Assembly (NCBI GenBank): GCA_003142475.1
Contig: PLMK01000006.1
Location: 10,225 to 74,224 of the forward strand
Source of the DNA: Ignavibacteriota bacterium
GTDB taxonomy: Bacteria > Bacteroidota > Ignavibacteria > UBA10030
Direction: 5' to 3'
DNA: 64,000 bases
Under the pieces are notes generated by a model. The model worked only from the letters and a program-made list of their open reading frames with translations, ran no database searches and was not told the DNA's origin. Positions 24,760 through 53,998 of the stretch are shown piece after piece (within the stretch, counting starts at the first letter, position 1; each line of letters opens with the position of its first letter). Position numbers and translations under genes: made by a program.

Positions 24760-25730
24760 ATGTTGTATATTTTAGGTAGTTAAATAACCTAAGGAACATT
24801 ATGAAAACCGTTGCAAAACATACCGAACCGAAAATACAAAGCTTATTAGATGTTGAAAAAGTATTCCCAGATGAAAAAACATGTATTGAATATATGATTC
24901 AAAAGCGTTGGAACGGTAAGCCAAGATGCCCACACTGTGATAGTGAAAAAGTATATCGCTATTCAGACAACAAGCGGTTCAAGTGCCCCGCTTGTGCTAA
25001 ACAGTTCACAATAAAAATTGGTACCATCTTTGAAGATTCACCTCTTTCATTGCAAAAATGGTTCTTTGCAATATTCTTACTTACAGCACACAAAAAAGGA
25101 ATTTCATCTTGTCAATTGGCAAGAGATATTCATGTAACACAAAAATCAGCATGGTTTATGACTCAAAGAATTCGTGAATTGATGAAAACAAATTCCTTTG
25201 AAAAGAAATTAAACGGAATAGTTGAAGCAGATGAAACTTACGTCGGCGGAAAGAAACATAGTGGCAAACGTGGACGCGGTTCTGAGAACAAAACGCCAGT
25301 ATTCGGAATGGTAGCAAGACAGGGCGACGTAAGGACTATGCCAGTTGAAAGAGTGAACGGCGAAACCTTAAAAGGACTTATCCGAAAGAACGTAGACCTT
25401 AACGCCGTAGTAATGACAGACGAATGGACTGCGTATAATAATCTTTCCAATGAATTCAAACATGAAGTAATCAACCACAGTTCAAAAGAATATGTGAGAG
25501 GCAATATTCACACAAACAACATTGAAAACTTTTGGAGTTTGCTTAAACGCGGTATAGTAGGAATTTATCATCATGTTGATCCTAAACATTTACATCGCTA
25601 TACCGATGAATTTCAGTATCGTTATAATTCAAGAAAAATTACCGACGCAGATAGATTCACGCAAATTTTAAGTCAATGCGAAGGACGCTTGACATATGCA
25701 ACGCTTATTAATAAATAGGTGTTATTATGA
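24760..25730 (+). mobile_element. IS1595-family insertion sequence (ends not resolved)
   Basis: Contains a single IS1595-type transposase gene. Terminal inverted repeats could not be identified by eye, so boundaries are approximate. Confidence 0.5.
24801..25718 (+). CDS. IS1595-family transposase
   Basis: N-terminal zinc-ribbon (CPHCDSEKVYRY...KCPACAKQF), then ...SLQKWFFAIFLLTAHKKGISSCQLARDIHVTQKSAWFMTQRIRE... and a DDE core (VEADETYVGG...MTDEW). 305 aa. Confidence 0.85.
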   Translation: MKTVAKHTEPKIQSLLDVEKVFPDEKTCIEYMIQKRWNGKPRCPHCDSEKVYRYSDNKRFKCPACAKQFTIKIGTIFEDSPLSLQKWFFAIFLLTAHKKGISSCQLARDIHVTQKSAWFMTQRIRELMKTNSFEKKLNGIVEADETYVGGKKHSGKRGRGSENKTPVFGMVARQGDVRTMPVERVNGETLKGLIRKNVDLNAVVMTDEWTAYNNLSNEFKHEVINHSSKEYVRGNIHTNNIENFWSLLKRGIVGIYHHVDPKHLHRYTDEFQYRYNSRKITDADRFTQILSQCEGRLTYATLINK

Positions 25731-28972: not shown

Positions 28973-31222
28973 TTAAATATTATTTTGATTCATTCGACGC
29001 ATCATTGCTATTGTTAAACCGCTAATAATCATCACGGAAGCAATCCACACGAGACTCATAAACGGCTTCACACTAATCTCAGCAATAAGAGTTTCAGGTT
29101 TTTGTATTCCCGTATGCATCATCCCTTTGACGTCAACCACATTAATTTGTACCTGTGACTTCTTTGTACCAGATGCCACGTTCATTGCCACAAGTTGAAA
29201 TCCAAGATGTCCATTCTTGAGATATGCTGTCTTCATCTCAAGATTTCCCTGTGTAGTATATGTTGTTGTTGGTACAATTTCCTGAACATCCTTTTCAGTT
29301 TTGATTTGAAGCACTGCGCCAATGGTGATAGAATTCTCTCCGCCCATCATGCCGCCTTTGCCATGCGCTCCCATATCAAATCTTTGGAAAGTAAGGGTAA
29401 TAGCACCGTAAATCTGTGGTTCATTTTTAACCAGAACAATCAGGTTCTGTTGATTTGTTTCTCCCTGCTCAATGGAAAGCGGCTCAAGATAGAAATCACC
29501 AGCCCACGAACTTACATAGTCTGGAATCCGCATCAGACTATTGTTGTAATTACTTTCGAACATTATTGGCTCGAGGAGTGAGAATTTACCATTGTATTCA
29601 ACGTTGATTGCATACTTTGTCTTCCCATCCTGCGCAGGTTTTGCACCGGTAAAATTCATTTGATAACCAAATGCAGACTTCGGCTGATTCAGTGGAAGCG
29701 CGATAGATTGTTTTTGTCCGTACCTGCCAGATGCGATGATGCCCAAAAATAGAATTGCCAATCCGACATGTGCGAGCGCTCCGCCGATAAAACGTGGTTG
29801 TTCCTTTGCAATTTGGTAACCATGACTGACACTGACAAAGAATGCGAAGAGCGATGTTAGTATGAGCAATGCAGCAAGAATATCATGCAAACCCATTATT
29901 ATGAAAATACCGAGAACGACAAAGGATAAGATGCCGGGAATAATAAGTTTTTTCATAAATAACGGTAGTTCTTCTTTGTTCCATTTTGTACGTAGACTGA
30001 GTCCGAGAAGTAACGTCATTAACACAGCAAGCGGAAGATTGGTACGATCGTAGAACGATGACTCAACCATAGAAGAATAAAAGAGCGGTTTGCTAGTTCC
30101 AAAAAGAATAACTGCTGCGCAGACTCCCATCACAATTGTGGCAATAGTGAGCATAGATTCGCGGTTGAACCATGCACTATGAGGGGTTGCGATTTTCAGT
30201 TCCTTCCACCGTAGAATAGTCATTCCAAATCCACAGAAGGCAATCACTCCTAACCATACGATAAGCAATGAATATGCAAACGTGCCGGGATCCACAAATG
30301 AGTGCACTGAAGCATTTGCAAGAATTCCACTGCGTGTTAAGAACGTACTATAAATAACAAGGAGATATGCCAGTACAGCAAGAATAAAGTTTGTGCGTGC
30401 AAGCTTGCCGGTGAACATCTGAATGAGCATTGTATGAATTAACATAATAGCAACCATCCAGGGAATGAGCGATGAATTCTCCACTGGATCCCAGCCCCAC
30501 CAACCACCCCAGCCCAGCACACCGTACGCCCAATAACCGCCGAGTATAAGACCGACACCAAGCGACATCGCACTGAAAAGTACCCAAGGCAAAGCATTAT
30601 GTAGCCACTTTTCGTACTTTTTCTGCCAGAGAGCGGCAATAGCGAGAACAAATGGAACTGCAAGTGAAGCAAATCCTAAAAACAATATTGGGGGATGGAT
30701 TATCATCCAAAAATTTTGCAATAATGGATTAAGTCCTTTGCCTTCCTGAGGAATAAATCCGGTTGGAACATTGTTCGCTGCTACATCCCAGATTAATTGA
30801 AACGGTGATTTAATTGCAATGAGCAGAAGAAGAAATGAAAGCACAAGCGAGTACGCCGCCATCGCCTCACTTTCTATACGTTCATGCAAGACAGTGCGCT
30901 GCAAAACAAATCCTATAACTGCGGCAAAAAACGCCCAGAGCAAAAAACTGCCTTCTTGTCCGGCCCAGAATGTCGTAATCAATAATTGTATGGGAAGATC
31001 GCGAGAGCTATAGTTTGCAATGTAATTGTACTCAAATCGATGCTGAAGAATGTATACCATAAGCAGTGCAGAAGCTGCGAAGACACCTATGAGGGAAATA
31101 AAAAAGCTTCCGCGCGCAACCAACAACAGCTTCTTTTTTGCTGTCGATATATAATAGAAGTAAGTTGATGCAAGCGTTGCTGCGAACGTAATCCAAATAA
31201 TAACCGAGCCTATCATTTTCAA
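28973..31222 (-). CDS. ccsBA: cytochrome c biogenesis system II protein, fused CcsBA-type (ResB/CcsA)
   Basis: Polytopic membrane protein carrying the CcsA tryptophan-rich WWD motif GWGGWWGWDPVENSSLIPW and conserved His residues. 749 aa with a large C-terminal periplasmic domain. Confidence 0.75.
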   Translation of the reverse strand: MKMIGSVIIWITFAATLASTYFYYISTAKKKLLLVARGSFFISLIGVFAASALLMVYILQHRFEYNYIANYSSRDLPIQLLITTFWAGQEGSFLLWAFFAAVIGFVLQRTVLHERIESEAMAAYSLVLSFLLLLIAIKSPFQLIWDVAANNVPTGFIPQEGKGLNPLLQNFWMIIHPPILFLGFASLAVPFVLAIAALWQKKYEKWLHNALPWVLFSAMSLGVGLILGGYWAYGVLGWGGWWGWDPVENSSLIPWMVAIMLIHTMLIQMFTGKLARTNFILAVLAYLLVIYSTFLTRSGILANASVHSFVDPGTFAYSLLIVWLGVIAFCGFGMTILRWKELKIATPHSAWFNRESMLTIATIVMGVCAAVILFGTSKPLFYSSMVESSFYDRTNLPLAVLMTLLLGLSLRTKWNKEELPLFMKKLIIPGILSFVVLGIFIIMGLHDILAALLILTSLFAFFVSVSHGYQIAKEQPRFIGGALAHVGLAILFLGIIASGRYGQKQSIALPLNQPKSAFGYQMNFTGAKPAQDGKTKYAINVEYNGKFSLLEPIMFESNYNNSLMRIPDYVSSWAGDFYLEPLSIEQGETNQQNLIVLVKNEPQIYGAITLTFQRFDMGAHGKGGMMGGENSITIGAVLQIKTEKDVQEIVPTTTYTTQGNLEMKTAYLKNGHLGFQLVAMNVASGTKKSQVQINVVDVKGMMHTGIQKPETLIAEISVKPFMSLVWIASVMIISGLTIAMMRRMNQNNI

Positions 31223-31386
31223 TCCTTCAATAGAGAGTTATCAATCACTGTTGGTTTACAACAAAAGAGAATACTCAAAGGTTTCATCACAAGGAATAGA
31301 CGGAATAAAACAACAGTGCGGGAGTTCTGGCTCCCGCACTTGTTAAGACAATGGATAATAACGCTTGGGTATTGTTACACCTGCAT

Positions 31387-32670
31387 TTACTTGTTGAGAT
31401 CTGCAATAGAATTATCCAAAAGAGCTTTAACATATTTATAGTTATGAATACCATGACTCTTTTCATATTGAATCTGTTGCAGGTTCCACAATGCACTAGC
31501 CTTGGAAGCCGGAAAAATTACTAACGGTTGTAAGGATGACGCATTAGCGGACCACGTGGAATCACCTGTGACCGCGCTGGCCGTCAGCGTTACCCATGGA
31601 ACAGCTTTTCCACTTTGTGGAAGCGACCACTTCTTCGTTATCGTTGTATCCATCATCATGCTAGCCAATTGTGATGTCTTTGCAATGATTTCATTGCGAA
31701 CCTGTGCCCAATGTGGATCGCTGGCATTGCTTGTTGAAACAGGACTAGAAGAATGACACCCGGTCACATTGCAGCCGTTTACATTGTACGATGGGCTTGT
31801 TGATCCAGAAGCAAGATATCTGACCCAGAATGTATGTCCGCCGTTTTGATTGCTGCTATTAACGGTCGCCATATGGCAATCCTCGCAACCGAGAGTACGC
31901 ATGCCGACCAATGTAGTATGATAGGAATTGTTGTACGGAGTAGGACCTGGAATTTCAACTCCGCCAAAACCTAAAAGAGTTTGTGTCGGTTCACCTGATA
32001 CGTGGTTATTCCATCTGGACGTATAGATCTTTGCTGTATCAGTAGTATTCGTCTTTGATGGATCGGGCTGCCACGATGCTGGTGTCGTGCCGGACTTCCA
32101 CATAAACGTGGAAGTCATACGTGGTTGATGGCACTTCACACATAGATTGGATGCATTACTACTATTCCATTGTTTCGTTGTTTGTCCTGCAACAAGTGTA
32201 AAAATATTCACTACACTGGAGTCACGCACAGTAAAATTAGCACGGCTATGTGGTGAATGGCAAGTAAAACAACCGGGAGGCGAAGCATTAGGATAACCTT
32301 GGTTACAAATTGGTCCGGATGGAGCAATTGGATTGAATGTTTCATTCGTAAAACCTTTGCTATAGCGTTCTAAGAAACCTTCATTCGTATGACAGCCAGC
32401 GCAATCAAATGAATTGCGAGCGAAATTACCGCCCTCAAAATGACTGGAGGCTTCATATTGAACTTCTTTAGTAAGTACACGATATGTTGTATCCAGATCT
32501 GGATTGTGGCAGGTCGCGCATTTAATACCGGGCGCAAAACCCTCGAGGGTGCTCTCTGAAGCATCTTTACCAGCAGGACCAGTAGGACCTTCTTTACAGC
32601 CAGACATAGCCGCAATTACAAAGATACCTATCCCCAAGATAGTAATACCCCAAAATATTTTTTTCACCAT
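31387..32670 (-). CDS. multiheme c-type cytochrome lipoprotein (5 CxxCH + 1 CX4CH)
   Basis: Lipobox AAMSGC. CATCH, CAGCH, CFTCH, CVKCH, CEDCH and CNVTGCH. Ser/Thr/Asn-rich linker regions. Confidence 0.8.
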   Translation of the reverse strand: MVKKIFWGITILGIGIFVIAAMSGCKEGPTGPAGKDASESTLEGFAPGIKCATCHNPDLDTTYRVLTKEVQYEASSHFEGGNFARNSFDCAGCHTNEGFLERYSKGFTNETFNPIAPSGPICNQGYPNASPPGCFTCHSPHSRANFTVRDSSVVNIFTLVAGQTTKQWNSSNASNLCVKCHQPRMTSTFMWKSGTTPASWQPDPSKTNTTDTAKIYTSRWNNHVSGEPTQTLLGFGGVEIPGPTPYNNSYHTTLVGMRTLGCEDCHMATVNSSNQNGGHTFWVRYLASGSTSPSYNVNGCNVTGCHSSSPVSTSNASDPHWAQVRNEIIAKTSQLASMMMDTTITKKWSLPQSGKAVPWVTLTASAVTGDSTWSANASSLQPLVIFPASKASALWNLQQIQYEKSHGIHNYKYVKALLDNSIADLNK

Positions 32671-32765: not shown

Positions 32766-33656
32766 TTATCGAAAATTAAGCACTACTCCACCGGCAAGAT
32801 CAATTTTTCCGTTTATATGCTTTGCTTTGTTTTTAATATTGCCTGAAGCATCCATCACATCTCCATGACATGTATAACATATCGTCAAAGCGGAAGGTTT
32901 ATGACCATTCGGTGGCAAAGTATGACAAGTGGTCGTACTGCCGCAACTTTTTTCTACTGGACCACCATTCCAGCGAGGTGCATAACTAGCACCGGTCATT
33001 ATACTAGTGGTAAACATCGTGGTATCAGGCGAACCTACTTTTGGAAGACGCCACGCTCCATGGCAGAATGTATTCGTGCATGTCATAGAACTTGGATCAT
33101 ATGTCGGGGTAGGTGTTATACCACTGCTTGTGAGATTAGCCAAGGGATCATTCAGAATAACTTCTGCACGTCCATCTGCACTGATATGAGCTGGATCATA
33201 AATACTCGTCGGCATGTGATGGCACGCATCGCATAACATACTATGGGATGAATAGGTCCCGTTGCCGATAAAATGGATTTGATGAGCTCCTACACCATGG
33301 GCTGTATATGAAGTGCTTCCATCGAGAGCCGGTGCGGGGGGCATGCCATGACAGGTTGCACAATTTTGCGGACCACCAGGTGCTGTATGGCAAATATTGC
33401 ATGATTTTCCTGATATCCCTCCAGTATAGTCAGCACCATGACAAGATTGGCAGACGTGCATATCCCAATTATTATTTTGGATCGCTTTGCCATGAAAATT
33501 GGCAGAAGTAGTATCCGTCCACCCTTGTACATGAATTTGCAACTCATCACTCTCTTCTGTCGGCAAATCCTTCTTCAAATCGCTGCATGAGCTAAGGAAA
33601 AGAATAAGCACAAGAGTTGTAAAAATCGAGATTATATAGTGTCTCTTCATATTCAA
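32766..33656 (-). CDS. multiheme c-type cytochrome lipoprotein (5 CxxCH + CX4CH/CX5CH)
   Basis: Lipobox FLSSCS. CQSCH, CNICH, CATCH, CDACH, CYTCH, CTNTFCH and CGSTTTCH. Confidence 0.8.
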   Translation of the reverse strand: MNMKRHYIISIFTTLVLILFLSSCSDLKKDLPTEESDELQIHVQGWTDTTSANFHGKAIQNNNWDMHVCQSCHGADYTGGISGKSCNICHTAPGGPQNCATCHGMPPAPALDGSTSYTAHGVGAHQIHFIGNGTYSSHSMLCDACHHMPTSIYDPAHISADGRAEVILNDPLANLTSSGITPTPTYDPSSMTCTNTFCHGAWRLPKVGSPDTTMFTTSIMTGASYAPRWNGGPVEKSCGSTTTCHTLPPNGHKPSALTICYTCHGDVMDASGNIKNKAKHINGKIDLAGGVVLNFR

Positions 33657-34917: not shown

Positions 34918-36216
34918 TCAGAAAATGTTCAAACGTTCGCCTAAATAATAACTGCCTCGTAAAAAGAGGCGCACATCATTGTTATAAATTTTATTTTGGA
35001 TCCACTGTACCTGCGCATCCAGCGAAAGGGCCGGAATTGGGCGGTACACCGCTCCGACAGCACCGCTTAGAGCATCTGTTATTGGTGCATTGCTGTTTAA
35101 TTTATAGTGTGCATACCCCGCTACAATAGTCGGTGTAAGTTTATTATCAAATAATGGATAACCCGCATTCATAGAAAACGCTGCTAATTCTCCGCCATAA
35201 CCGGTGTTCCAGCTAAAACTTGCCGAGGCGTACTTTATATTGCAGCCAAGTGTAACTTGATTGGAATTGTCATCACCGTATGAAACGGCACCGAACTTCC
35301 CAAATACTTGCCAGTCCTTGCAGATTGCGTATTCGGCGCCAAGTTCATATTCGCTTATCGTGTTATAAGCAAATACCCAGAATATGGAATTATATGAAAG
35401 ATGCGGTTCGCGGTGGATATATTCACCTGTAAGCGAAAACGGTTCCGTTACCCTTACTCGTGTAAAGAATTGAATTCGTGAAAATATTTCCTGATTTAAA
35501 TCGAAATCGCTTCGAGCATATGCAGAGATCATGTCGTAGTCAATGCTGATGTCTCCGCTAATATATTGTTCGGCCGTCGCACTTGGAGATATCTCTGTTA
35601 TAACGGGATTGAAAAGGGAGTCTTTTCTGAGCGCCCAGTACGTTTCAGGTTTAATATTTTTCTGCATATAGCTCAATGATACACGTGCAAAGTCCATCGG
35701 CATACCAATCAACTGTGCGCCGAACATATTATTATTTTTCTGATCACTAATCATCTCAAATTTTTGTCCGGGAGATGGCAGAGCACCATAATAACCGAAC
35801 ACCTTCAATCTTGAATCAAGCAATCGGATTGAAGCGATGCCGCCATCGATTGTGCCGTTACCAACGCCTGCAAAGATCGCTTGACGACCGAGACTGATAT
35901 CGACCATTTCAAATAAGTTTGCGTAATTCAAATAAAAATTATAGAACCGAATTGTACCTTCATTTTTTAACGGACCGGCAAAATCGTTAAACCCTTGCAG
36001 ATACGTATGAAACGAAAGATGCTCACCTGCCAACGCGAGCTGTACTGTCTGGTATCCGAACAGGTGGTTGGATGATTGACCTACTGTATCTTGTTGCTGC
36101 CACGCAGAGGCGGAAGAGACAAGTCGCAATTGAAAAAATTGAGCCGATGTTTCACAGAAAAGAAAAATGAACATCGCCAACATCATTAAAATGCTGCGCT
36201 GCATTGGATGTTTCAT
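34918..36216 (-). CDS. outer-membrane beta-barrel (porin-like) protein within the cytochrome cluster
   Basis: Signal peptide, alternating amphipathic beta-strand pattern, and C-terminus ...LGERLNIF ending in Phe (outer-membrane beta-signal). 432 aa. Confidence 0.65.
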   Translation of the reverse strand: MKHPMQRSILMMLAMFIFLFCETSAQFFQLRLVSSASAWQQQDTVGQSSNHLFGYQTVQLALAGEHLSFHTYLQGFNDFAGPLKNEGTIRFYNFYLNYANLFEMVDISLGRQAIFAGVGNGTIDGGIASIRLLDSRLKVFGYYGALPSPGQKFEMISDQKNNNMFGAQLIGMPMDFARVSLSYMQKNIKPETYWALRKDSLFNPVITEISPSATAEQYISGDISIDYDMISAYARSDFDLNQEIFSRIQFFTRVRVTEPFSLTGEYIHREPHLSYNSIFWVFAYNTISEYELGAEYAICKDWQVFGKFGAVSYGDDNSNQVTLGCNIKYASASFSWNTGYGGELAAFSMNAGYPLFDNKLTPTIVAGYAHYKLNSNAPITDALSGAVGAVYRPIPALSLDAQVQWIQNKIYNNDVRLFLRGSYYLGERLNIF

Positions 36217-36845: not shown

Positions 36846-37074
36846 ATGAGACTCTCCTTTTATTTAATTCTTAATTAATAATAATATTTGCTAATGATGA
36901 CAGGAATTGTTTTTTCTACGTTCAGCCGGCGTGCATATACGTATAAATATGGTAAAAATAAATGTAGAAAACACCAACTTAAAATCCGTAAATTTGCCAT
37001 AACCTAATATACATATTAGTTTCTCTTCGATCACAATCTTCCCTAATTATTATCGTTTATAAAACCAAATTTAA

Positions 37075-38583
37075 CTACTCTTCTGCGTTATGGCAGTCGC
37101 TACAATTTATTTCTTTCCATGAATCTCCGATGTCTACAGGATGTTGGTATTGGACACCATCCAGCGAAACACTGTTTTCTCCTTTTCCAAAACTCTGAGC
37201 AAGAATTGTATGACAAACAGAACATTCGTTCGTGAGGATTTTCCCATCTTCTCTAATATGTTTATTATCATGGCATCGGAAACAACCTTTATAAAAAAGG
37301 TGACCAATATTGTTTGGAAAATGTCGCCATGTGACAGCCATTGTTGGAAAGTAATTTCGCGCATAAAACTTTTGGACTGTTGAAACCATCTGGCTAATTG
37401 CTGCGCTTTTTTCTGAAGCAACCTGAGGATAATTCGTTTTGTAATATCCTTCAATCGCAAGCCGGATACTATCCTGTGCGACATTTGAAGAAGAATATGT
37501 TTGATCAAGTGCCTTGACAGCAATGCTTTTTGCATATGGTAACTTTGAATCTATCAATCCGGCTGATATAACATGATCTACCGTCGGTACCGGGGGATGA
37601 TAGATGTGCGAGGGACGATTATGACAATCGATGCAATCCATCGTGCGTTTTTCTAACAATGCTAACGAATCTTCGGTGATAGGATTTTCGAGGTTGCGAT
37701 AGATATGTTCAGTTCCGTCTTTTTTACTTTTTACTTTAATCCATGGAATAATTTGACGCTGCCTATCTGCCGGTGCGTACGTAATTGCATTTGCAATATT
37801 CATGTTCCAATGAATACCTCCCGAAAGTCCGGTTTCTTCGTTTCCCCCGCCAACTTTGATAAGTAAATCCAAATTCCATCGTGTATTGGTTTCATCAGAG
37901 AGAAAATACGATTTCGATACACGCATTTCGCTAAAGAAATGCTTCGGCCAATGACATTGCTCGCATGTTTCTTGTGCTGGTCGAAGATTCTCGATTGGTG
38001 TGGCAATAGGGCGTGAATATTTATTGAAGATAGTGGAATACACCTGATATGCGCCGGAGAGCTTAGAGCGTACAAACCATCCAGCACCGGGACCTATGTG
38101 GCATTTTGCACAACCGACATGCGCATGTGGCGAACTGTTATAAGCTGTATATTCCGGCTCCATAACTTTATGGCACATAGTTCCACAGAATTCATCGGAA
38201 TCAGTATACTCGTAAGCTTTGAAACTGCCGAAGGCTGAGAAAATTAAGAGCAGCAATGCACCAAATGAAAACCAAAAGAACGCATTCCGTTGCTTTGGAT
38301 CATTTAAATCAATACGTGGTAATTTGAGATCTTGCGGCAGTCCTTGTTTCTCACGTCTGTGCTCACGCCAAATACCATAGAACACAAGTATAAGTCCAAA
38401 GAGAACGAATATTGGAAGAATAATAAATGTAAGAATGCCTATGTAGGGTTTCTGCTCTCCTTCAAACAGATCAAGGACAGTCAAGAAGAGCACAAGTCCG
38501 AAACTCACCGATGCAATTGCCGCACCGATCAGTGTCCGCAAATTATAAAATGCCGGCGGGAAAATGCGCTTCATATATTTCAT
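37075..38583 (-). CDS. inner-membrane multiheme c-type cytochrome (7 haem motifs), ImcH/NapC-NirT-like putative quinol dehydrogenase
   Basis: Two N-terminal transmembrane helices, then CGTMCH (CX3CH) plus CAKCH, CEQCH, CIDCH, CFRCH, CSVCH, CSDCH. About 500 aa. Confidence 0.6.
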   Translation of the reverse strand: MKYMKRIFPPAFYNLRTLIGAAIASVSFGLVLFLTVLDLFEGEQKPYIGILTFIILPIFVLFGLILVFYGIWREHRREKQGLPQDLKLPRIDLNDPKQRNAFFWFSFGALLLLIFSAFGSFKAYEYTDSDEFCGTMCHKVMEPEYTAYNSSPHAHVGCAKCHIGPGAGWFVRSKLSGAYQVYSTIFNKYSRPIATPIENLRPAQETCEQCHWPKHFFSEMRVSKSYFLSDETNTRWNLDLLIKVGGGNEETGLSGGIHWNMNIANAITYAPADRQRQIIPWIKVKSKKDGTEHIYRNLENPITEDSLALLEKRTMDCIDCHNRPSHIYHPPVPTVDHVISAGLIDSKLPYAKSIAVKALDQTYSSSNVAQDSIRLAIEGYYKTNYPQVASEKSAAISQMVSTVQKFYARNYFPTMAVTWRHFPNNIGHLFYKGCFRCHDNKHIREDGKILTNECSVCHTILAQSFGKGENSVSLDGVQYQHPVDIGDSWKEINCSDCHNAEE

Positions 38584-38784
38584 CCTCTATTCGATGCACG
38601 ATGATAAGCATATTTTTCTGATTGCTTGTTGGTGATATTTCATTTTGTATTCTTTTCAGAATCTACGCTGATCATCACGTTACTTTCTTTTAGCTTCTTA
38701 CACTTTATTGTCTCCAACTCCGATAAATATTTGTCTACTATTTCAGCTACGAGGATTGTGACTTTGAGCCAAACAGATAGATAT

Positions 38785-46657: not shown

Positions 46658-48886
46658 ATGAAGAAGATAATTATTAAGATATTTTTCCCAATTATTGGAT
46701 TGATATCACTTATCTGGTTTTTATTTCGTGTCGTTCCCAAACCAAGTCGTGCCACGTATCCCTGCATGCGTGTTGCCTATCCTATAGCCTCTTCTTTTGT
46801 AATCTACTTTCTTGGATTGGTTACTTCTGCTTTTGCTTTTGGCAAAATGAAAGAGCATTGGAAATATTCACACTATTGGACTATGATCGGCTTTTTGGTG
46901 ATTGCACTAATAACAGGATTTTTCTCTTTTCAGGCAGATCAACCTCCAGTATATGCTAATACAAGCAATCTTGGTGCAGCTAACGCACCTATTGGCGAAG
47001 CAAAAGGAATATACCCGGGAAGAGTGGTTTGGGTGCATGATTCTGCCGCTACAAATCAAAATTGTGTCCCCGGTTCTTACGGTCATGGATGGTTTTTGCC
47101 TGAGAACAATAATCAGACAGTTGTAGACGGGATGGTTTCTTCTGCTGTTCAAAAACTGACAGGACAGATTACAGATAGTGCTGCTTGGAGGGCGATATTT
47201 GAATATCATAATACGACACGCGGCAAGGGGGCTGTCAATTACGCAGCCGGAGAAAAAATCCTCATAAAAATAAACGCTACAAGCGGCTGGAGTGGAAACT
47301 ATAATACATCGGATCTATCAAAGGTATACAATTCAAATTACGGTATCTCCGAAACTTCCCCGGCGATTGTGCTGTCGGTACTGCGTCACCTCGTGAACAA
47401 GGTGCGTGTTTCACAGACCGATATCTATATCGGCGATCCGATGAAGCACATCTACAAACACTGCTACGACCTCTGGCATGCGGAATTTCCGAACGTCCAC
47501 TATCTCGATAACAGCTACTCCACGCTGGGAAGAGAAAAAGCAACCGCAAGCACTACAGCAAAAATATATTATTCCGATCACGGAGCCGTGTTGCGCGCGA
47601 ACGTTTGGGACCCGGGGAGACCCGGGGGAAGTCCTATCTATAATGATTATCTTTACACAATATTATCAACCACGGAATATGTTATCAACCTGCCGATGTT
47701 AAAAGGACACCAGCGGGCGGGCATAACGGCTTTTGCTAAGAATAATTTCGGTTCACAAACCAGAGCAGATGCGTCACAGCTACATGACGGTCTTGTGGCT
47801 CCGATGCAAATGGAGAATGGCATAACAAGACCTGGATACGGTTTATATCGCGTTCAGGTCGATTTCATGACACATTCACTCACCGGAAAAAAGAACCTAT
47901 TTTACTTGATGGATGCCCTGTGGGCGACCGACTACGAAGCGGACGTTCCTTTAAAATGGCAAATGGCTCCGTTCAATAACGACTGGATGTCTTCGGTATT
48001 CGCATCATTCGATCCTGTCGCTATCGAATCTGTTGGGTACGATTTTCTCCGTTCTGAATTTACTGCCGCGCGCGGCAACTGCTCTACTGTTGTTCAAATG
48101 GATGGAGTTGATGATTATTTACATCAGGCAGCGGATTCATTGAATTGGGCAAGCGGTATTAAGTATGATCCTGATAGTAATGGGGTACATATTAAAAGCC
48201 TTGGAACGCATGAACACTGGAATAATGCGACTGAAAAACAATACACAAGGAATCTCGGAACTGGTCAAGGAATTGAATTAATCTCTATTGATAATTCTTC
48301 CCTTCTCGTCCAACTCGTTTCTTTTGGTGTTATGCTTAAAGAAACTCAAATATTGCTTGTATGGAAAACTGCATCAGAAGAGAATAACTATGGATTTGAA
48401 GTGGAGAGAAGAGCAATTGTCAGTGATCAGTCATCGATGACCAATACGTGGCAGAAAATTGGGTTTGTTGCCGGTAACGGTTCCAGCAATATTACGCATG
48501 AGTATTCTTTCAGCGATCTCAAGCTTACGGTAGGCAGATATGTCTATCGTTTGAAACAGATTGATAATGATGGGACGTTTACATATTCAACAAGTGTAGA
48601 AGTGAAGATTGGAGCAGCGCCGGCTGTTTTCTCTTTGTCTCAAAATTATCCTAATCCATTCAATCCATCTACGGTTATTAAGTATCAAATAAAAAGTTTC
48701 TGCAATGTTCACTTGGAGGTGTTCGATATGCTGGGAAGAGAAGTAAAAAAATTAGTACACGATGAACAAGATGCAGGTTTTTACTCAGTAACTTTCGATG
48801 CAAACAATTTACCCAGTGGAACATATCTCTATAGATTACATGCAGGAAATTTTGTTGAGACGAAAAAGCTAATTTTACTGAAATGA
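46658..48886 (+). CDS. T9SS C-terminal-domain protein with N-terminal hydrophobic segments
   Basis: Ends NYPNPFNPSTVIKYQ...YLYRLHAGNFVETKKLILLK (T9SS CTD). Three N-terminal hydrophobic stretches. Confidence 0.6.
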   Translation: MKKIIIKIFFPIIGLISLIWFLFRVVPKPSRATYPCMRVAYPIASSFVIYFLGLVTSAFAFGKMKEHWKYSHYWTMIGFLVIALITGFFSFQADQPPVYANTSNLGAANAPIGEAKGIYPGRVVWVHDSAATNQNCVPGSYGHGWFLPENNNQTVVDGMVSSAVQKLTGQITDSAAWRAIFEYHNTTRGKGAVNYAAGEKILIKINATSGWSGNYNTSDLSKVYNSNYGISETSPAIVLSVLRHLVNKVRVSQTDIYIGDPMKHIYKHCYDLWHAEFPNVHYLDNSYSTLGREKATASTTAKIYYSDHGAVLRANVWDPGRPGGSPIYNDYLYTILSTTEYVINLPMLKGHQRAGITAFAKNNFGSQTRADASQLHDGLVAPMQMENGITRPGYGLYRVQVDFMTHSLTGKKNLFYLMDALWATDYEADVPLKWQMAPFNNDWMSSVFASFDPVAIESVGYDFLRSEFTAARGNCSTVVQMDGVDDYLHQAADSLNWASGIKYDPDSNGVHIKSLGTHEHWNNATEKQYTRNLGTGQGIELISIDNSSLLVQLVSFGVMLKETQILLVWKTASEENNYGFEVERRAIVSDQSSMTNTWQKIGFVAGNGSSNITHEYSFSDLKLTVGRYVYRLKQIDNDGTFTYSTSVEVKIGAAPAVFSLSQNYPNPFNPSTVIKYQIKSFCNVHLEVFDMLGREVKKLVHDEQDAGFYSVTFDANNLPSGTYLYRLHAGNFVETKKLILLK

Positions 48887-49018: not shown

Positions 49019-51268
49019 TTACTTTGTCGTCATCACAAAGACACCGTTCCATTCAACCGGCGGCGGAGTAATTTGATACAAGTTTGCACGTTCTGTGTAA
49101 ATCTGTGCGACATAACAGGACTCGTCCAATGAATGTGCTTGCTGCATATACGCAATCGCTTCTTCCCATTTCCTTGAGCGGTAGAATTTCAATCCTTCGT
49201 GGTACATCTCAAGTGCCTGTCGCTGATTCTCAGTCATTTCCATTTCTGCAGTGCCGAGCAATTCGTACACCTTCACCGGTTCTGTCTTGCCTTTCACTTG
49301 AATCAAATCAAGTTCCCGTACTATAACTTTGTTTTTCACATGCGTATATGTAAAATCACTGATCATAATACTTGATTGGTATTGTTTGTTAGCGCCTTCA
49401 AGCCGCGAAGCAAGGTTTACACTATCACCGATAACCGTGTAATCAAACCTATCTTTTCCTCCTATATTACCGACAATCATAATGCCAGTATTGATACCCA
49501 TTCGTACTGAAATTACAGGCTTGCTTTCCTTTGCCCATTTTTGCCTGAGTACACGCAAGCGTTTCTGCATCTCCAGCGCTGCAAGACATGTCCGTAGTGC
49601 ATGATCCTTTTGCGGAAGCGGTGCGCCCCAGAATGCCATAATTGCGTCGCCTTCGTATTTATCTAATGTTCCTTCACATTTAAGTACAATATGTGTCATT
49701 TCATTTAAGTATTCATTGAGCAGCGCAACCAATACCTCCGGTTTGCTGTGGTACTGTTCCGAAATACTAGTGAAGTTGGCTATATCAGAGAAAAATACTG
49801 TCAGTTCGCGGCGATCTCCACCAAGCTTTGCTTTCTCCGGATTCAAAACCAGTTCATTTACGACCGTACGATTAATATAATGGCCGAACATATTTTTTAT
49901 GATTGCTTTTTGCTGTCGCTCGGTCAAATACTGATAAACAGTTGTACCGAAATAAGCCAATACAATTGCAAGACACGGGTTAACAACATTCATCAAAATA
50001 TTATTGTTGCTAAACACAATAATAGAAACTTCGAATACAGCGCCAATAAAAATAATGGTTAAAAGAAATGCTCCGATCTCCAGTAGCCACATATGTCGTA
50101 TGTGAACCTGCTTTAGCGCCAATAGACCAAGGAAGCAGATGAGCGAGAGAAGAATTATAACAATTCCTTCGATCAATGGATCCACTGTTGTGATAAAGTG
50201 TTTGTCGATAACATTCTGAATGGCTGTGGCATGAATTTCTACGCCATTCATCGCGTAGTTTCTTTTCCCACCTTCTTCTTTGTAAAGAGGCACATTGTGA
50301 TAATCGCGTTCTTCTGCCATAATGGAACCGATAATGACGATTTTGTCTTTAAAAAGTTTCATTGTGGTCGTATCAAAGGCATTGATCTGTTCACCTAATT
50401 CCAATTCGTCTTTGGTCTGGAAAGTCGAATCATCAATAACTTGAGAAAATGGAACATAGCGAAACGTTCTGTCCGGACCGTAAAAGTTCAACATAAAGGT
50501 GCTGCCATTTCGCGGAATCTTTCGATCTTTGTAGATAAAGAATTGCTCGTTTCTCCAGTCAACGGTTGTCCCTGGTCTGAGTCTGAAGTACTTGTTTAGG
50601 GCAGCAAATCCGAGTGTTGGCGTTTCCCAGCCTTTAACATCTAACAGTGGAAAATAGGAACGGCAGACATTATCTCGATCCTTAAGGATGTTGGTTATGC
50701 CAATATTCTTATCGACGTCATAAAAAATATTATCATAGGTTGGTTCTGTCGCACGTATCTCCGCTTTTTCGTTCGACGATCCCGTTCCTACTGTTGCTGC
50801 AAGTATAACATTGTTGTATTTAGTTAGCGTTGCACGTAATGTACTGTCTCCTTGAACATTTTTTCCGGGCGATTGCAATGTTATATCAAACACTATGGCC
50901 TTTGCACCAGCTTCATTTAAGTTCTCGATGACATGAGCATAATATGACCTAGGAAACGGAAACGGTTCTTGGAGCGCCTTTAGATCCTCCTCATCCGATA
51001 TGCTCACAATAACGATATCACAATTTTTAAGATCTCGTGTCTGCTCGGTTCGTTCATATCTACTTTGGTAACGCAGGTCAATCGTCAATAAATCGATATT
51101 CTTTAGAAAGCTCAGTTCGAAGAGCCATCCTTGTCCGATGATAATGACGAAGATGCCTATGCTCAGACCGATTGACAGCTTAATAAGCATCGGCATTATT
51201 TTTCTTTTGAATTCATAGGAAGGCATAATTCTGATTCCTTTTACGATCAATCGGAGGAATAATCCCAC
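49019..51268 (-). CDS. CHASE2-domain sensor adenylate/guanylate cyclase (class III) with C-terminal TPR-like region
   Basis: N-terminal CHASE2-like extracytoplasmic domain, transmembrane helices, cyclase core (FFSDIANFTSISE..., FDYTVIGDSVNLASRLE). Confidence 0.75.
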   Translation of the reverse strand: MGLFLRLIVKGIRIMPSYEFKRKIMPMLIKLSIGLSIGIFVIIIGQGWLFELSFLKNIDLLTIDLRYQSRYERTEQTRDLKNCDIVIVSISDEEDLKALQEPFPFPRSYYAHVIENLNEAGAKAIVFDITLQSPGKNVQGDSTLRATLTKYNNVILAATVGTGSSNEKAEIRATEPTYDNIFYDVDKNIGITNILKDRDNVCRSYFPLLDVKGWETPTLGFAALNKYFRLRPGTTVDWRNEQFFIYKDRKIPRNGSTFMLNFYGPDRTFRYVPFSQVIDDSTFQTKDELELGEQINAFDTTTMKLFKDKIVIIGSIMAEERDYHNVPLYKEEGGKRNYAMNGVEIHATAIQNVIDKHFITTVDPLIEGIVIILLSLICFLGLLALKQVHIRHMWLLEIGAFLLTIIFIGAVFEVSIIVFSNNNILMNVVNPCLAIVLAYFGTTVYQYLTERQQKAIIKNMFGHYINRTVVNELVLNPEKAKLGGDRRELTVFFSDIANFTSISEQYHSKPEVLVALLNEYLNEMTHIVLKCEGTLDKYEGDAIMAFWGAPLPQKDHALRTCLAALEMQKRLRVLRQKWAKESKPVISVRMGINTGIMIVGNIGGKDRFDYTVIGDSVNLASRLEGANKQYQSSIMISDFTYTHVKNKVIVRELDLIQVKGKTEPVKVYELLGTAEMEMTENQRQALEMYHEGLKFYRSRKWEEAIAYMQQAHSLDESCYVAQIYTERANLYQITPPPVEWNGVFVMTTK

Positions 51269-51319: not shown

Positions 51320-53857
51320 TTAGAATGTGAAACGATAAATGATACTTGCAATAACATCGTTTCTTATATCCGGGTTCTGAATGAAATCAAGCTGGCCAAC
51401 AATAAACTGATTGTTTATTACTTGATAATCGATACCAGCTTGCACCAAGAACCGTTTGAAATCGCCGAAAGAAGGTGCCAAAGTTGTGAACACATTGAGG
51501 CGATCATTATACATCCGGTAACGTGCAGTAATTGAAAGAGTTTGATAATCAAACGCCTGTTTATTTGTGATGCTAGAATATTGTTTCTTTGCAGTATCTT
51601 CCAATGCAGAATATGTGGCATTATGACTGACAATAATTGCTATAGTTGTTTGCAGTGGAATTTTATAGAGTGTTGTTAACGCTGCAGAAATACTGACATT
51701 GTTCTGATCGTTCTTGTAAAATGTGTCATCTTTTTTGTTTGCGATAGTGACAGACATTGTTGCTGTTTGGCGCGCAAGAAAATTAAAATTATAATTTGTT
51801 GAAAGAAAAAAACGGTTTGTAATTTCATCTGCACAATTCACCGAATCCAATGCCGTAGAGGGGAAAATTGTGTCTGCGGCAGCCGTTACAATAGGATTCA
51901 GATGAAGTTCTATAGGATTTTTACGTGTATTCATGCCGTACCCAACGGTGAAAGAAGGCAGTTCTACACCCGGAAACACCGTTATGTTTGTATTCAGTGT
52001 GTTATATGTTGTTGTCGGAGTATTTACATCGTTCTGTGTATTATTACGTTTTGTTTCGTAGGACACGCTTGCCATCAATTTGTTATCCAATAGCCGAATG
52101 CGGTCAGAGACGTTAATGCCTTCAATATCGGTTTGAATAAAATCATTACCGAATGATTTATAAGCAATGCCGCGCCGGAAGACCAAAGCATGAATATAAT
52201 TATTGAAATAATTCAGCGAAAGATCTGATTCATATGCTAACGATGGTAACGAAGAATTTACAGGATTGAGTGGCCAGAGTTGGCTGTTCACTGTAATAAA
52301 GTTACGGCCGATTTTGGCGGTATTTATATAGTCATTTACCGTTTGGGCAGAATCAGATTTTCCTATTCCAAATTGTCTAAATTCATCGTCTGTCATACTG
52401 CCGCCGGTGATATCATTATTTGTCATACTCATTGCCGCTTGGCTTGCCCACCGGACTTTCTGATTATCAAATGCAATCAGTAGATCTGCACCGGCAACAA
52501 TATTTTCCTGCGGATAAGTACCATATGTAATAGAATTAATGTCGTCTTTTGATTGCATATAGGTAATGCCTAATTGGAAATGTTCTCCGCTTCCAAAACT
52601 AGGACGAATGGCAAAAAAATTACGGGCAAATGTGCCGGAAGTGTACATTCGATAGAAAAGAGTATCCATTGTTGTGGCATATGCAGGATTTTGTCCACCG
52701 AATCTTTCGAATATTGTTTCTTTTGAACGCGCAGATGCCGAAGAAGAATCAGCAAAAAGTGTATCCCCAATTATTGTTCCTTCAATAGCACGGTCTGTTT
52801 TTCCGTATGAGACATCAACATTGAAATAACCAAATGTGAGTGAACCTGTAATACCCCGTACACGTTTTCCGCTTACCACTAGCGATGGTAGAATTGGATA
52901 TGCATCACCGATTTGCACCTTTGCATATTCACCTGCTTGCAATGTTCCAAGAAATCGATCTTGTGGTTGACGATCTGGTTTTTCTTCATTTGTCAAGTGG
53001 ACATCGCCGCCAAACATCAAAAATTTGTATGTTCCGTTCACATGAAGATCTCCGCGTACGTATGTTGTGTTTGCGGAGTCAATCTTCTCATTCCGTAATT
53101 CCAATTGACCGTTACCCTCGTATTGAAGTAAACTTTTTTCTTCTTCGATAGCAGTGGTAGTAGAAAGATTGAAATCTGTGCGTTTTGTGAAGTACAGATT
53201 TCCTAATGTATCACGTAATTCAATTTTAATAGAGTGCACACCAAGTGTAAGTGGCTTATCAAAATTTTTCGGACTGTATAGAATCACATCATCTGAAAGC
53301 AAAGCTTCCTTTGTTACATCAGCTTCGTCAAGATAAACATGTGTACGACGTTTATCGACAGCATCAGATGCGTACATGAGCGATACAGCAACTGCCAAAT
53401 CTTCTGCTGCCAAAGTTTCTCCCTGTTCAGGGCTGAGAAAACGGACCTCCATATCTTTTGGATCCACCCCTTTCACTGAAATCTTTATCGGATTGATTTC
53501 TGGATTTTCTGATGGGAATGTCGCTTGTACGTTATTGCCGAGTCGCATTTCAATATAATATTCAATGTAAGGCGGCGTCATTGATTTTGCCGGGATTGTA
53601 GCAACTGCTGTGCGGCCGGAAAGCAACATATCCATTGCTTTATATTCCGTTACTCCAAATTCGCGATAGTGAAGCAAAACTCTTTGAATTTTAGTATTTT
53701 GAGTCAATTTGACGCTTACAGAAAGTGATGATTGTTCGGAGGCAGGCGGCACTTTTACCTCAATAACGTATTGACTGACTTGCCCATACATCATAGGGAA
53801 TAAGAAAACAAAGAAGAAAAGAAAGGATAGCACGGCAGTGTAGCGAATCCGATTCAT
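51320..53857 (-). CDS. large hypothetical outer-membrane beta-barrel protein
   Basis: Signal peptide (MNRIRYTAVLSFLFFFVFLFPMMYGQ). C-terminus ...IYRFTF with terminal Phe. Last gene of a three-gene secreted/outer-membrane operon. Confidence 0.5.
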   Translation of the reverse strand: MNRIRYTAVLSFLFFFVFLFPMMYGQVSQYVIEVKVPPASEQSSLSVSVKLTQNTKIQRVLLHYREFGVTEYKAMDMLLSGRTAVATIPAKSMTPPYIEYYIEMRLGNNVQATFPSENPEINPIKISVKGVDPKDMEVRFLSPEQGETLAAEDLAVAVSLMYASDAVDKRRTHVYLDEADVTKEALLSDDVILYSPKNFDKPLTLGVHSIKIELRDTLGNLYFTKRTDFNLSTTTAIEEEKSLLQYEGNGQLELRNEKIDSANTTYVRGDLHVNGTYKFLMFGGDVHLTNEEKPDRQPQDRFLGTLQAGEYAKVQIGDAYPILPSLVVSGKRVRGITGSLTFGYFNVDVSYGKTDRAIEGTIIGDTLFADSSSASARSKETIFERFGGQNPAYATTMDTLFYRMYTSGTFARNFFAIRPSFGSGEHFQLGITYMQSKDDINSITYGTYPQENIVAGADLLIAFDNQKVRWASQAAMSMTNNDITGGSMTDDEFRQFGIGKSDSAQTVNDYINTAKIGRNFITVNSQLWPLNPVNSSLPSLAYESDLSLNYFNNYIHALVFRRGIAYKSFGNDFIQTDIEGINVSDRIRLLDNKLMASVSYETKRNNTQNDVNTPTTTYNTLNTNITVFPGVELPSFTVGYGMNTRKNPIELHLNPIVTAAADTIFPSTALDSVNCADEITNRFFLSTNYNFNFLARQTATMSVTIANKKDDTFYKNDQNNVSISAALTTLYKIPLQTTIAIIVSHNATYSALEDTAKKQYSSITNKQAFDYQTLSITARYRMYNDRLNVFTTLAPSFGDFKRFLVQAGIDYQVINNQFIVGQLDFIQNPDIRNDVIASIIYRFTF

Positions 53858-53998
53858 ATCAATTCCTTTAAAAATGTAAGTTAAAATTCTGATGAATAAC
53901 AATGGCAAAGAAGGAAACGGCGGGTTGCCTAATACCCGCCGTTCAAGTTATTAAAAGCATTTATATGAAGCAAGACTACGACGTATGCCAGGATCAGT

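Follow-up and report, generated by a model that had tools for sequence, protein, structure and literature searches.

The closest described counterpart of the gene considered here is imcH of Geobacter. Its product, ImcH (GSU3259), oxidises menaquinol, releases protons to the periplasm and reduces a periplasmic cytochrome (bioRxiv 10.1101/2023.05.03.539133), and is needed specifically for acceptors above about -0.1 V (PMC4251993). The hallmarks of ImcH are three transmembrane (TM) helices, a first haem motif of the CX3CH type beside the membrane domain, six CxxCH motifs and a length of 495-519 amino acids (aa) (PMC4251993, PMC6295460), together with a NapC/NirT-like stretch (PMC4251993). Haem 1 is ligated by His137 and Gln179, and E127, K173 and Y188 are conserved at the presumed menaquinol site (bioRxiv 10.1101/2023.05.03.539133). 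Homologues have already been catalogued in Ignavibacteria (Melioribacter roseus WP_014855859.1, PIP78050.1 and PIU45462.1; Table S3, PMC6295460), and a porin-cytochrome (pcc) cluster, IALB_1837-1840, has been described in Ignavibacterium album (PMC4245776). The present analysis concerns a 64-kb stretch of DNA from an Ignavibacteriota bacterium (contig PLMK01000006.1, hereafter the window) and its imcH-like gene, which lies directly upstream of a porin-cytochrome module of this type. With a probability of roughly 0.7, we consider the gene product to be a cytochrome of the ImcH family, from an Ignavibacteria-like bacterium, that feeds the adjacent porin conduit, forming a quinol-to-surface route encoded by a trimmed version of an ancestral cluster.

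The assignment of the gene product to the ImcH family, as an inner-membrane multihaem cytochrome, is well supported by sequence comparison. The window protein aligns with Geobacter-type ImcH over 491 residues at 44% identity (E-value 8e-162), with nine gap positions and all seven haem motifs in register, and this value lies inside the range of 31.5-49% published for identity between Geobacter and other ImcH homologues (PMC6295460). Residues D128, H138, K174, Q180 and Y189 of the window protein correspond, at the same spacing, to E127, H137, K173, Q179 and Y188 around haem 1 of the Geobacter-type protein. Every feature of the family that a sequence can reveal was found: the TM helices, the CX3CH motif, the CxxCH spacing, a length of 499-502 aa, homology, the NapC/NirT region and the pocket residues. 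An ImcH-like identity had been proposed in an earlier note on this DNA from size and haem count, and the end-to-end homology and the conserved haem-1 pocket now place it on firmer ground. The window protein thus resembles GSU3259 in length (502 versus 507 aa), in its three N-terminal TM helices, in a CX3CH motif following the third of them, in six aligned CxxCH motifs and in the NapC/NirT-like region; it differs in carrying Asp128 in place of Glu127, in its Ignavibacteria-like host, in that its gene heads a cytochrome cluster, and in being known from sequence alone.

The Geobacter-type reference used for this comparison (L042) is a metagenomic contig of 2070 bp and 61% G+C, located by means of 3259KHis1, a primer published for GSU3259. 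An exact copy of primer 3259KHis6 is also present on it, the flanking primers align with one to three mismatches, and its 507-aa open reading frame (ORF) has E127, H137, K173, Q179 and Y188, the residues named for GSU3259. Its length equals that of GSU3259 in Table S3 of PMC6295460, and its six CxxCH positions agree with that table after the table's constant offset of one. Because primers, length, motif positions and pocket residues all match, L042 is taken to carry imcH from a bacterium closely related to G. sulfurreducens PCA, that is, a metagenomic orthologue and not strain PCA itself. A scan of a genome collection with the GSU3259 upstream primer sequence gave no match, a homologue search seeded with the Desulfuromonadales-type member P0130 returned no named Geobacter entry among the matches listed, and a fingerprint of the exact GSU3259 numbering was absent from the 150 cluster representatives searched.

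The family is very large: at least 7946 proteins, out of 8000 candidates scored in a set of 5.8 billion, match at E <= 1e-5, and after clustering at 50% identity 715 clusters match at E <= 1e-30. Among the named relatives, those nearest to the window protein (60-71% identity) are annotated as 'NapC/NirT family cytochrome c' in metagenome-assembled genomes (MAGs) of Ignavibacteria/Bacteroidota. As judged from tabulated features and not from sequence, the window protein is like the catalogued Ignavibacteria ImcH proteins in its motif spacing (24, 49, about 108-110, 117, 20 and 39-40 residues) and in its three TM segments.

The interval given in the earlier note holds an ORF of 502 aa on the minus strand; the plus strand of the same interval translates into a sequence full of stops, with no ORF. 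The probable start is the ATG at 38574, chosen because close homologues begin at MKRIF, which gives a protein of probably 499 aa. The CX3CH motif, CGTMCH, occupies residues 133-138 and begins twelve residues past the third TM helix, straight after the membrane domain, and the CxxCH motifs follow at 158, 207, 317, 434, 454 and 494, so that the count of one and six given in the earlier note holds. All seven are invariant in an alignment of 70 sequences reaching down to 39% identity and are therefore not chance occurrences. Also invariant in these homologues are K174, Q180 and exactly six histidines outside the motifs (153, 258, 326, 428, 442 and 481); in number, the six histidines and Q180 match the distal ligands that six bis-His haems and one His/Gln haem require. 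A further invariant residue, M141 (38161-38163), lies three residues past the haem-1 histidine in CGTMCHKVM and recalls, at another spacing, the methionine ligand of NrfH haem 1 (CXXCHXM).

Hydropathy analysis by the Kyte-Doolittle scale located three hydrophobic segments, at about 15-42, 44-74 and 100-121, and an AlphaFold2 model built with 70 homologues (predicted local distance difference test (pLDDT) 76, predicted template-modelling score 0.71) places helices at 15-40, 46-79 and 96-127. Hence there are three TM helices, not the two of the earlier note. The N-terminus has four K/R and no D/E residues and the loop 72-100 has eight K/R, whereas the loop 40-47 and the stretch after the third helix are acidic; this positive-inside charge bias fits an N-in, C-out topology. 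Membrane anchoring, the absence of which had been named in the earlier note as an argument against the assignment, is thus borne out. Since the Kyte-Doolittle profile contains no membrane-spanning hydrophobic segment beyond residue 130, the haem domain should be periplasmic; it measures about 370 aa, shorter than the roughly 420 aa first estimated.

The first haems are also the region in which the protein resembles other quinol dehydrogenases. PF03264 (NapC/NirT) matches residues 102-190 (E 8.7e-10), the NrfH model TIGR03153 matches with 50.1 bits (E 3e-13) against a cut-off of 134.2, and the sole sequence match in the PDB is NrfH (2j7a_C, E 1.5e-5). As these are the only curated-model and PDB matches, the protein could be read as a tetrahaem quinol dehydrogenase of the NrfH/NapC type that serves a soluble reductase and has acquired an unrelated cytochrome domain at its C-terminus by fusion. 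We regard this as scarcely credible: the matches cover just residues of about 102-215 and remain below the NrfH cut-off, the whole length including the C-terminal half aligns with Geobacter-type ImcH, three TM helices and seven haems are present, and no reductase gene is adjacent. The comparison with NapC/NirT/NrfH hidden Markov models that the earlier note had called for therefore yielded partial matches only, the best full-length homology being to ImcH, and the end-to-end alignment rules out a fusion with an unrelated domain. NrfH, NapC and CymA share with the window protein a homologous TM helix and the first haems, with a quinol site near haem 1 in those proteins; they have a single TM helix, four haems, about 160-200 aa and a CXXCHXM haem 1, unlike the window protein with its three TM helices, seven haems and CX3CH motif.

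Downstream of the ImcH-family gene lies the porin-cytochrome module (Table 1), in which a barrel gene stands next to that of a secreted multihaem cytochrome and to those of predicted outer-membrane lipoprotein cytochromes. These are the features of a Pcc conduit, whose formation as a complex is predicted only. The AlphaFold2 model of the porin-like protein (pLDDT 81) consists of a signal helix and about 24-26 beta-strands, and a Foldseek search of the PDB with this model gave 306 matches at E <= 1e-3; each of the top 50, which were listed, is an outer-membrane barrel (FimD, AlgE, porins). The barrel-cytochrome module proposed in the earlier note is thereby upheld, with a 14-haem protein and two lipobox-type cytochromes beside the barrel. 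By description and not by sequence, the module is like IALB_1840-1837 of I. album in comprising a small periplasmic cytochrome, a porin-like protein, a cytochrome with 14 haems in about 400 aa and another whose haem motif is atypical. Unlike IALB_1837-1840 as published, where the described cluster has no ImcH homologue, imcH is the directly adjacent upstream gene in the window.

Table 1. Coordinates of the imcH-like gene, the deletion remnants and the porin-cytochrome module in the window (positions counted from its first letter)
Feature	Position	Strand	Description or evidence
imcH-like gene; seven-haem inner-membrane cytochrome	37075..38583	minus	502-aa ORF, three TM helices, one CX3CH and six CxxCH
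Pseudogene remnant: last 51 codons of a CbcL-like gene (13-haem plus cytochrome b), with in-frame stop	38622..38774	minus	tblastn with the L048 protein, 51% identity, E 7e-8
Intergenic scar of the Rieske/cytochrome b/11-haem unit	36851..36946	minus	blastn against the L048 11-haem 3' end and c554 upstream region: 71%, 98 nt, E 4.5e-7 (small search space)
172-aa 4-haem cytochrome c554-like protein, signal peptide; candidate periplasmic shuttle, IALB_1840 counterpart (PMC4245776)	36327..36845	minus	
432-aa porin-like outer-membrane beta-barrel	34918..36216	minus	AlphaFold2 and Foldseek
403-aa 14-haem cytochrome, signal peptide; size and haem count as IALB_1838 of I. album (PMC4245776)	33666..34877	minus	
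296-aa putative lipoprotein cytochrome, five CxxCH and one CX4CH; candidate surface cytochrome	32766..33656	minus	TIGR01904 (CxxxxCH/CxxCH) E 2.5e-9, lipobox-like N-terminus
427-aa putative lipoprotein cytochrome, five CxxCH and one CX4CH	31387..32670	minus	lipobox-like N-terminus, weak MtrC/MtrF domain II/IV match
Terminator-like hairpin (10 pairs, 7 G-C) after the last cytochrome gene	31315..31340	minus	
749-aa CcmF/NrfE-family haem lyase closing the cluster	28973..31222	minus	

The physical linkage of imcH to such a module had been considered unusual in the earlier note. This is so with respect to Geobacter, in which imcH is monocistronic (PMC4251993), and a survey of 2018 found imcH often beside cytochrome genes and never beside mtrAB (PMC6295460). 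It does not hold among Ignavibacteria-type relatives: in six of the eight contexts with enough flanking sequence, the same porin module is found less than 10 kb from imcH, so that in this group the linkage is the norm. In the loci L005/6, L007/8, L045, L047 and L048, whose ImcH homologues are 61-71% identical to the window protein, the module of c554, porin, 14-haem, cytochrome and haem-lyase genes lies some 3-4 kb downstream of imcH. Both genes also appear to occur together on at least nine other contigs, two of them only 10.6 and 13.7 kb long, as judged by the proxy of matching contig sizes in the ImcH and porin match lists.

What separates the two in the relatives is a further redox unit. 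Genes for a Rieske protein, a cytochrome b6/ExtP-like protein and an 11-haem cytochrome follow imcH in all seven other contexts with downstream sequence, starting 8-15 bp after imcH in six of them and behind three intervening genes in L009, and the porin module comes after these. On its other side, imcH is usually preceded by a CbcL-like gene, whose product combines 13 haems with a cytochrome b domain. The cytochrome b of these relatives (e.g., L005:10509-13497) scores E 6e-61 against the Geobacter ExtP model, and a pairing of imcH with a bc-type complex was not met in a limited literature search.

The window retains remnants of both extra units (Table 1). Relative L048 is syntenic with it on both sides, with flanking genes 83-94% identical at the protein level and pcc genes 86-87% identical, and keeps the two units. 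The CbcL remnant sits between the CoA-transferase gene and imcH, where an intact 749-aa gene is found in L048, L005, L045 and L049. Because L048 keeps both units and the window holds remnants of both, the direct adjacency of imcH and the porin module arose, by this comparison, through deletion; the sequences indicate that the ancestral cluster was larger, with the CbcL-like, imcH, Rieske, cytochrome b and 11-haem genes followed by the porin module, and that the window represents a trimmed state. The trimmed arrangement is shared by L050 (95% identical), where the CbcL remnant is a 55-aa ORF. L049 (83% identical) keeps the CbcL-like gene and has no Rieske gene in the 184 bp available downstream of its imcH. 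The identical ImcH protein was encoded on 20 contigs read, from many samples.

This history bears on a different view of the protein, as a CymA-like general menaquinol dehydrogenase hub that feeds several periplasmic pathways, such as a bc-type complex and nitrite or other reductases, the porin adjacency being a by-product of deletion. The regular succession of the Rieske, cytochrome b6/ExtP-like and 11-haem genes in the relatives and the deletion origin of the adjacency in the window speak for such a hub, and ImcH has been compared with CymA (bioRxiv 10.1101/2023.05.03.539133). We nevertheless consider a hub unlikely. At least two lineages and many samples retain the trimmed arrangement (the 20 contigs with the identical protein, and L050), and the only cytochromes left in the window besides ImcH are those of the porin module; moreover, ImcH evidently works without an adjacent Rieske unit, because all its haem ligands are intact.

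Under the preferred reading, in which ImcH feeds the adjacent conduit, three helices would anchor the protein with its N-terminus in the cytoplasm, and menaquinol would be oxidised at the periplasmic face in a pocket beside haem 1. This haem would sit on the CX3CH motif with His138 as proximal and Gln180 as distal ligand, and with Lys174, Tyr189 and Asp128 close by. Protons would be released into the periplasm, while electrons would run through seven closely spaced haems to an exposed terminal haem and from there to the 4-haem c554-like protein, which is nominated as the acceptor because of gene order. The c554-like protein would pass them to the trans-outer-membrane complex of porin and 14-haem cytochrome and further to the lipoprotein cytochromes, completing a quinol-to-cell-surface route for the reduction of extracellular Fe(III), Mn(IV) or electrodes. 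Homology to Geobacter ImcH is the basis on which we propose quinol oxidation, the direction in which electrons flow, the periplasmic partner and co-transcription. A bias towards acceptors of high potential would be in keeping with the loss of the CbcL-like gene, as CbcL serves low-potential acceptors in Geobacter, and other copies may exist elsewhere in the genome.

The same chain of haems, being intrinsically reversible, might run inwards, so that electrons taken up by the conduit from Fe(II), a cathode or a partner cell would be used by the ImcH-like protein to reduce menaquinone. Related quinone-interacting cytochromes (CymA, CbcL/MtoC) do occur in metal reducers and metal oxidisers alike (PMC6295460). 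ImcH homologues have so far been reported from reducers only (PMC6295460), the reduction of menaquinone by Fe(II) is thermodynamically uphill, and the flanking genes are catabolic and reductant-generating (2-oxoacid:ferredoxin oxidoreductase, alanine dehydrogenase, CoA transferase and malic enzyme), with those for the CoA transferase, alanine dehydrogenase and 2-oxoacid:ferredoxin oxidoreductase located upstream of imcH. An inward pathway is thus very improbable.

Several observations weigh against outward electron transfer from an ImcH-family protein to the neighbouring conduit. Glu127 of Geobacter ImcH is replaced in the window protein, if conservatively, by Asp128. A Foldseek search of the PDB with the ImcH model gave no match better than E 0.05, which is to be expected because the model is the haem-free form of a multihaem protein. 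Two of the Ignavibacteria-type imcH clusters, L009 and L046, are cytochrome clusters without a porin gene within 10 kb. No homologue of the module was found within the available flank (<=6 kb) of 28 homologue loci from Acidobacteriota and delta-proteobacterial MAGs; these loci are relatives of P0140, guessed to be Geobacter-like from its C-terminus and PRMKV motif, and since the search gave only MAGs of those two groups they serve as negative context controls only. In the window itself, a 229-bp AT-rich gap in which no terminator or promoter is assignable separates imcH from the c554-like gene; sigma-70 promoter matches were no more frequent than in shuffled sequence, and the phylum uses other promoter types. 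Finally, the native partner of ImcH could be a bc-type complex that is lacking at this locus, because the Rieske gene and not the porin module directly follows imcH in most relatives.

The imcH gene of the window itself appears to be a mosaic. Its product is 71% identical to the L048 copy, though the neighbouring proteins are 83-94% identical. At the DNA level, identity to syntenic relatives including L048 is 84-94% over the first 400 nt or so, which encode the membrane anchor, and then falls abruptly to 50-74% for the rest of the gene (37075-38574), with a breakpoint near 38175, at about the first haem motif; the drop includes synonymous sites. Against about 50 near relatives, the N-terminal half of the protein is about 85% and the C-terminal half about 56% identical. 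The window protein groups with P0001 and P0002 in a small sub-lineage, and its C-terminal half, the haem domain, is about equally distant (53-60% identity) from all other sampled Ignavibacteria homologues, which are 59-89% identical to one another. Despite this divergence the haem ligands are all intact.

The abrupt drop in nucleotide identity favours recombination over accelerated evolution. Acceleration is a possible cause as well, given that in a relative-rate comparison with outgroups the divergent half is just 2-3 points lower in identity than the relatives, a difference that alone does not separate the two. As the breakpoint is sharp and the divergent block runs into the scar of the Rieske unit, a single event is suggested. 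Our tentative proposal is that one recombination swapped the whole periplasmic haem domain and removed the bc-type partner, and that a later deletion of the CbcL-like gene left a minimal, self-contained quinol-to-surface route encoded in about 9.6 kb. In that case the haem domain of ImcH would act as a module that can be exchanged and that specifies the partner, and the locus would be a compact cassette, already assembled, with which extracellular electron transfer could be transplanted. Only two features of the locus are mildly unexpected, its mosaic haem domain and its deletion scars.

In the window and in all the relatives examined (L005, L007, L009 and L045-L048), the cytochrome cluster ends with a gene for a haem lyase of the CcmF/NrfE family. 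By analogy with NrfE, which acts on CXXCK, this lyase may be dedicated to maturing the atypical CX3CH and CX4CH sites. About 3 kb past the haem-lyase end of the cluster lies an IS1595-family transposase gene (24801-25718, plus strand; DDE_Tnp_IS1595 and zinc ribbon domains). Elsewhere in the window, a 742-aa protein (46658-48886, plus strand) combines DUF362 with a type IX secretion C-terminal sorting domain, which fits a Bacteroidota/Ignavibacteriota host, and an 862-aa ORF with no Pfam match (51320-53908, minus strand) adjoins a gene for a CHASE2-adenylate/guanylate cyclase (49019-51268, minus strand).

Few sites are known at which electrons pass from the quinone pool into extracellular electron transfer; ImcH is one of them and has been studied in Geobacter only. 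Both ImcH homologues in Ignavibacteria and a porin module of the I. album type are already in the literature. Current understanding is not overturned by the present locus, which confirms that Ignavibacteria-like bacteria have conserved the ImcH family and its unusual His/Gln haem-1 pocket. Because the inner-membrane, periplasmic, outer-membrane and haem-lyase parts are encoded together in this group, unlike in Geobacter, the partners of ImcH become predictable here from gene order, an advantage that work on the genetics of Geobacter did not have. The trimmed locus, which kept ImcH and lost the CbcL-like and Rieske/cytochrome b modules, represents a natural experiment on the need for the individual inner-membrane modules, and its compactness makes it a candidate for heterologous reconstruction.

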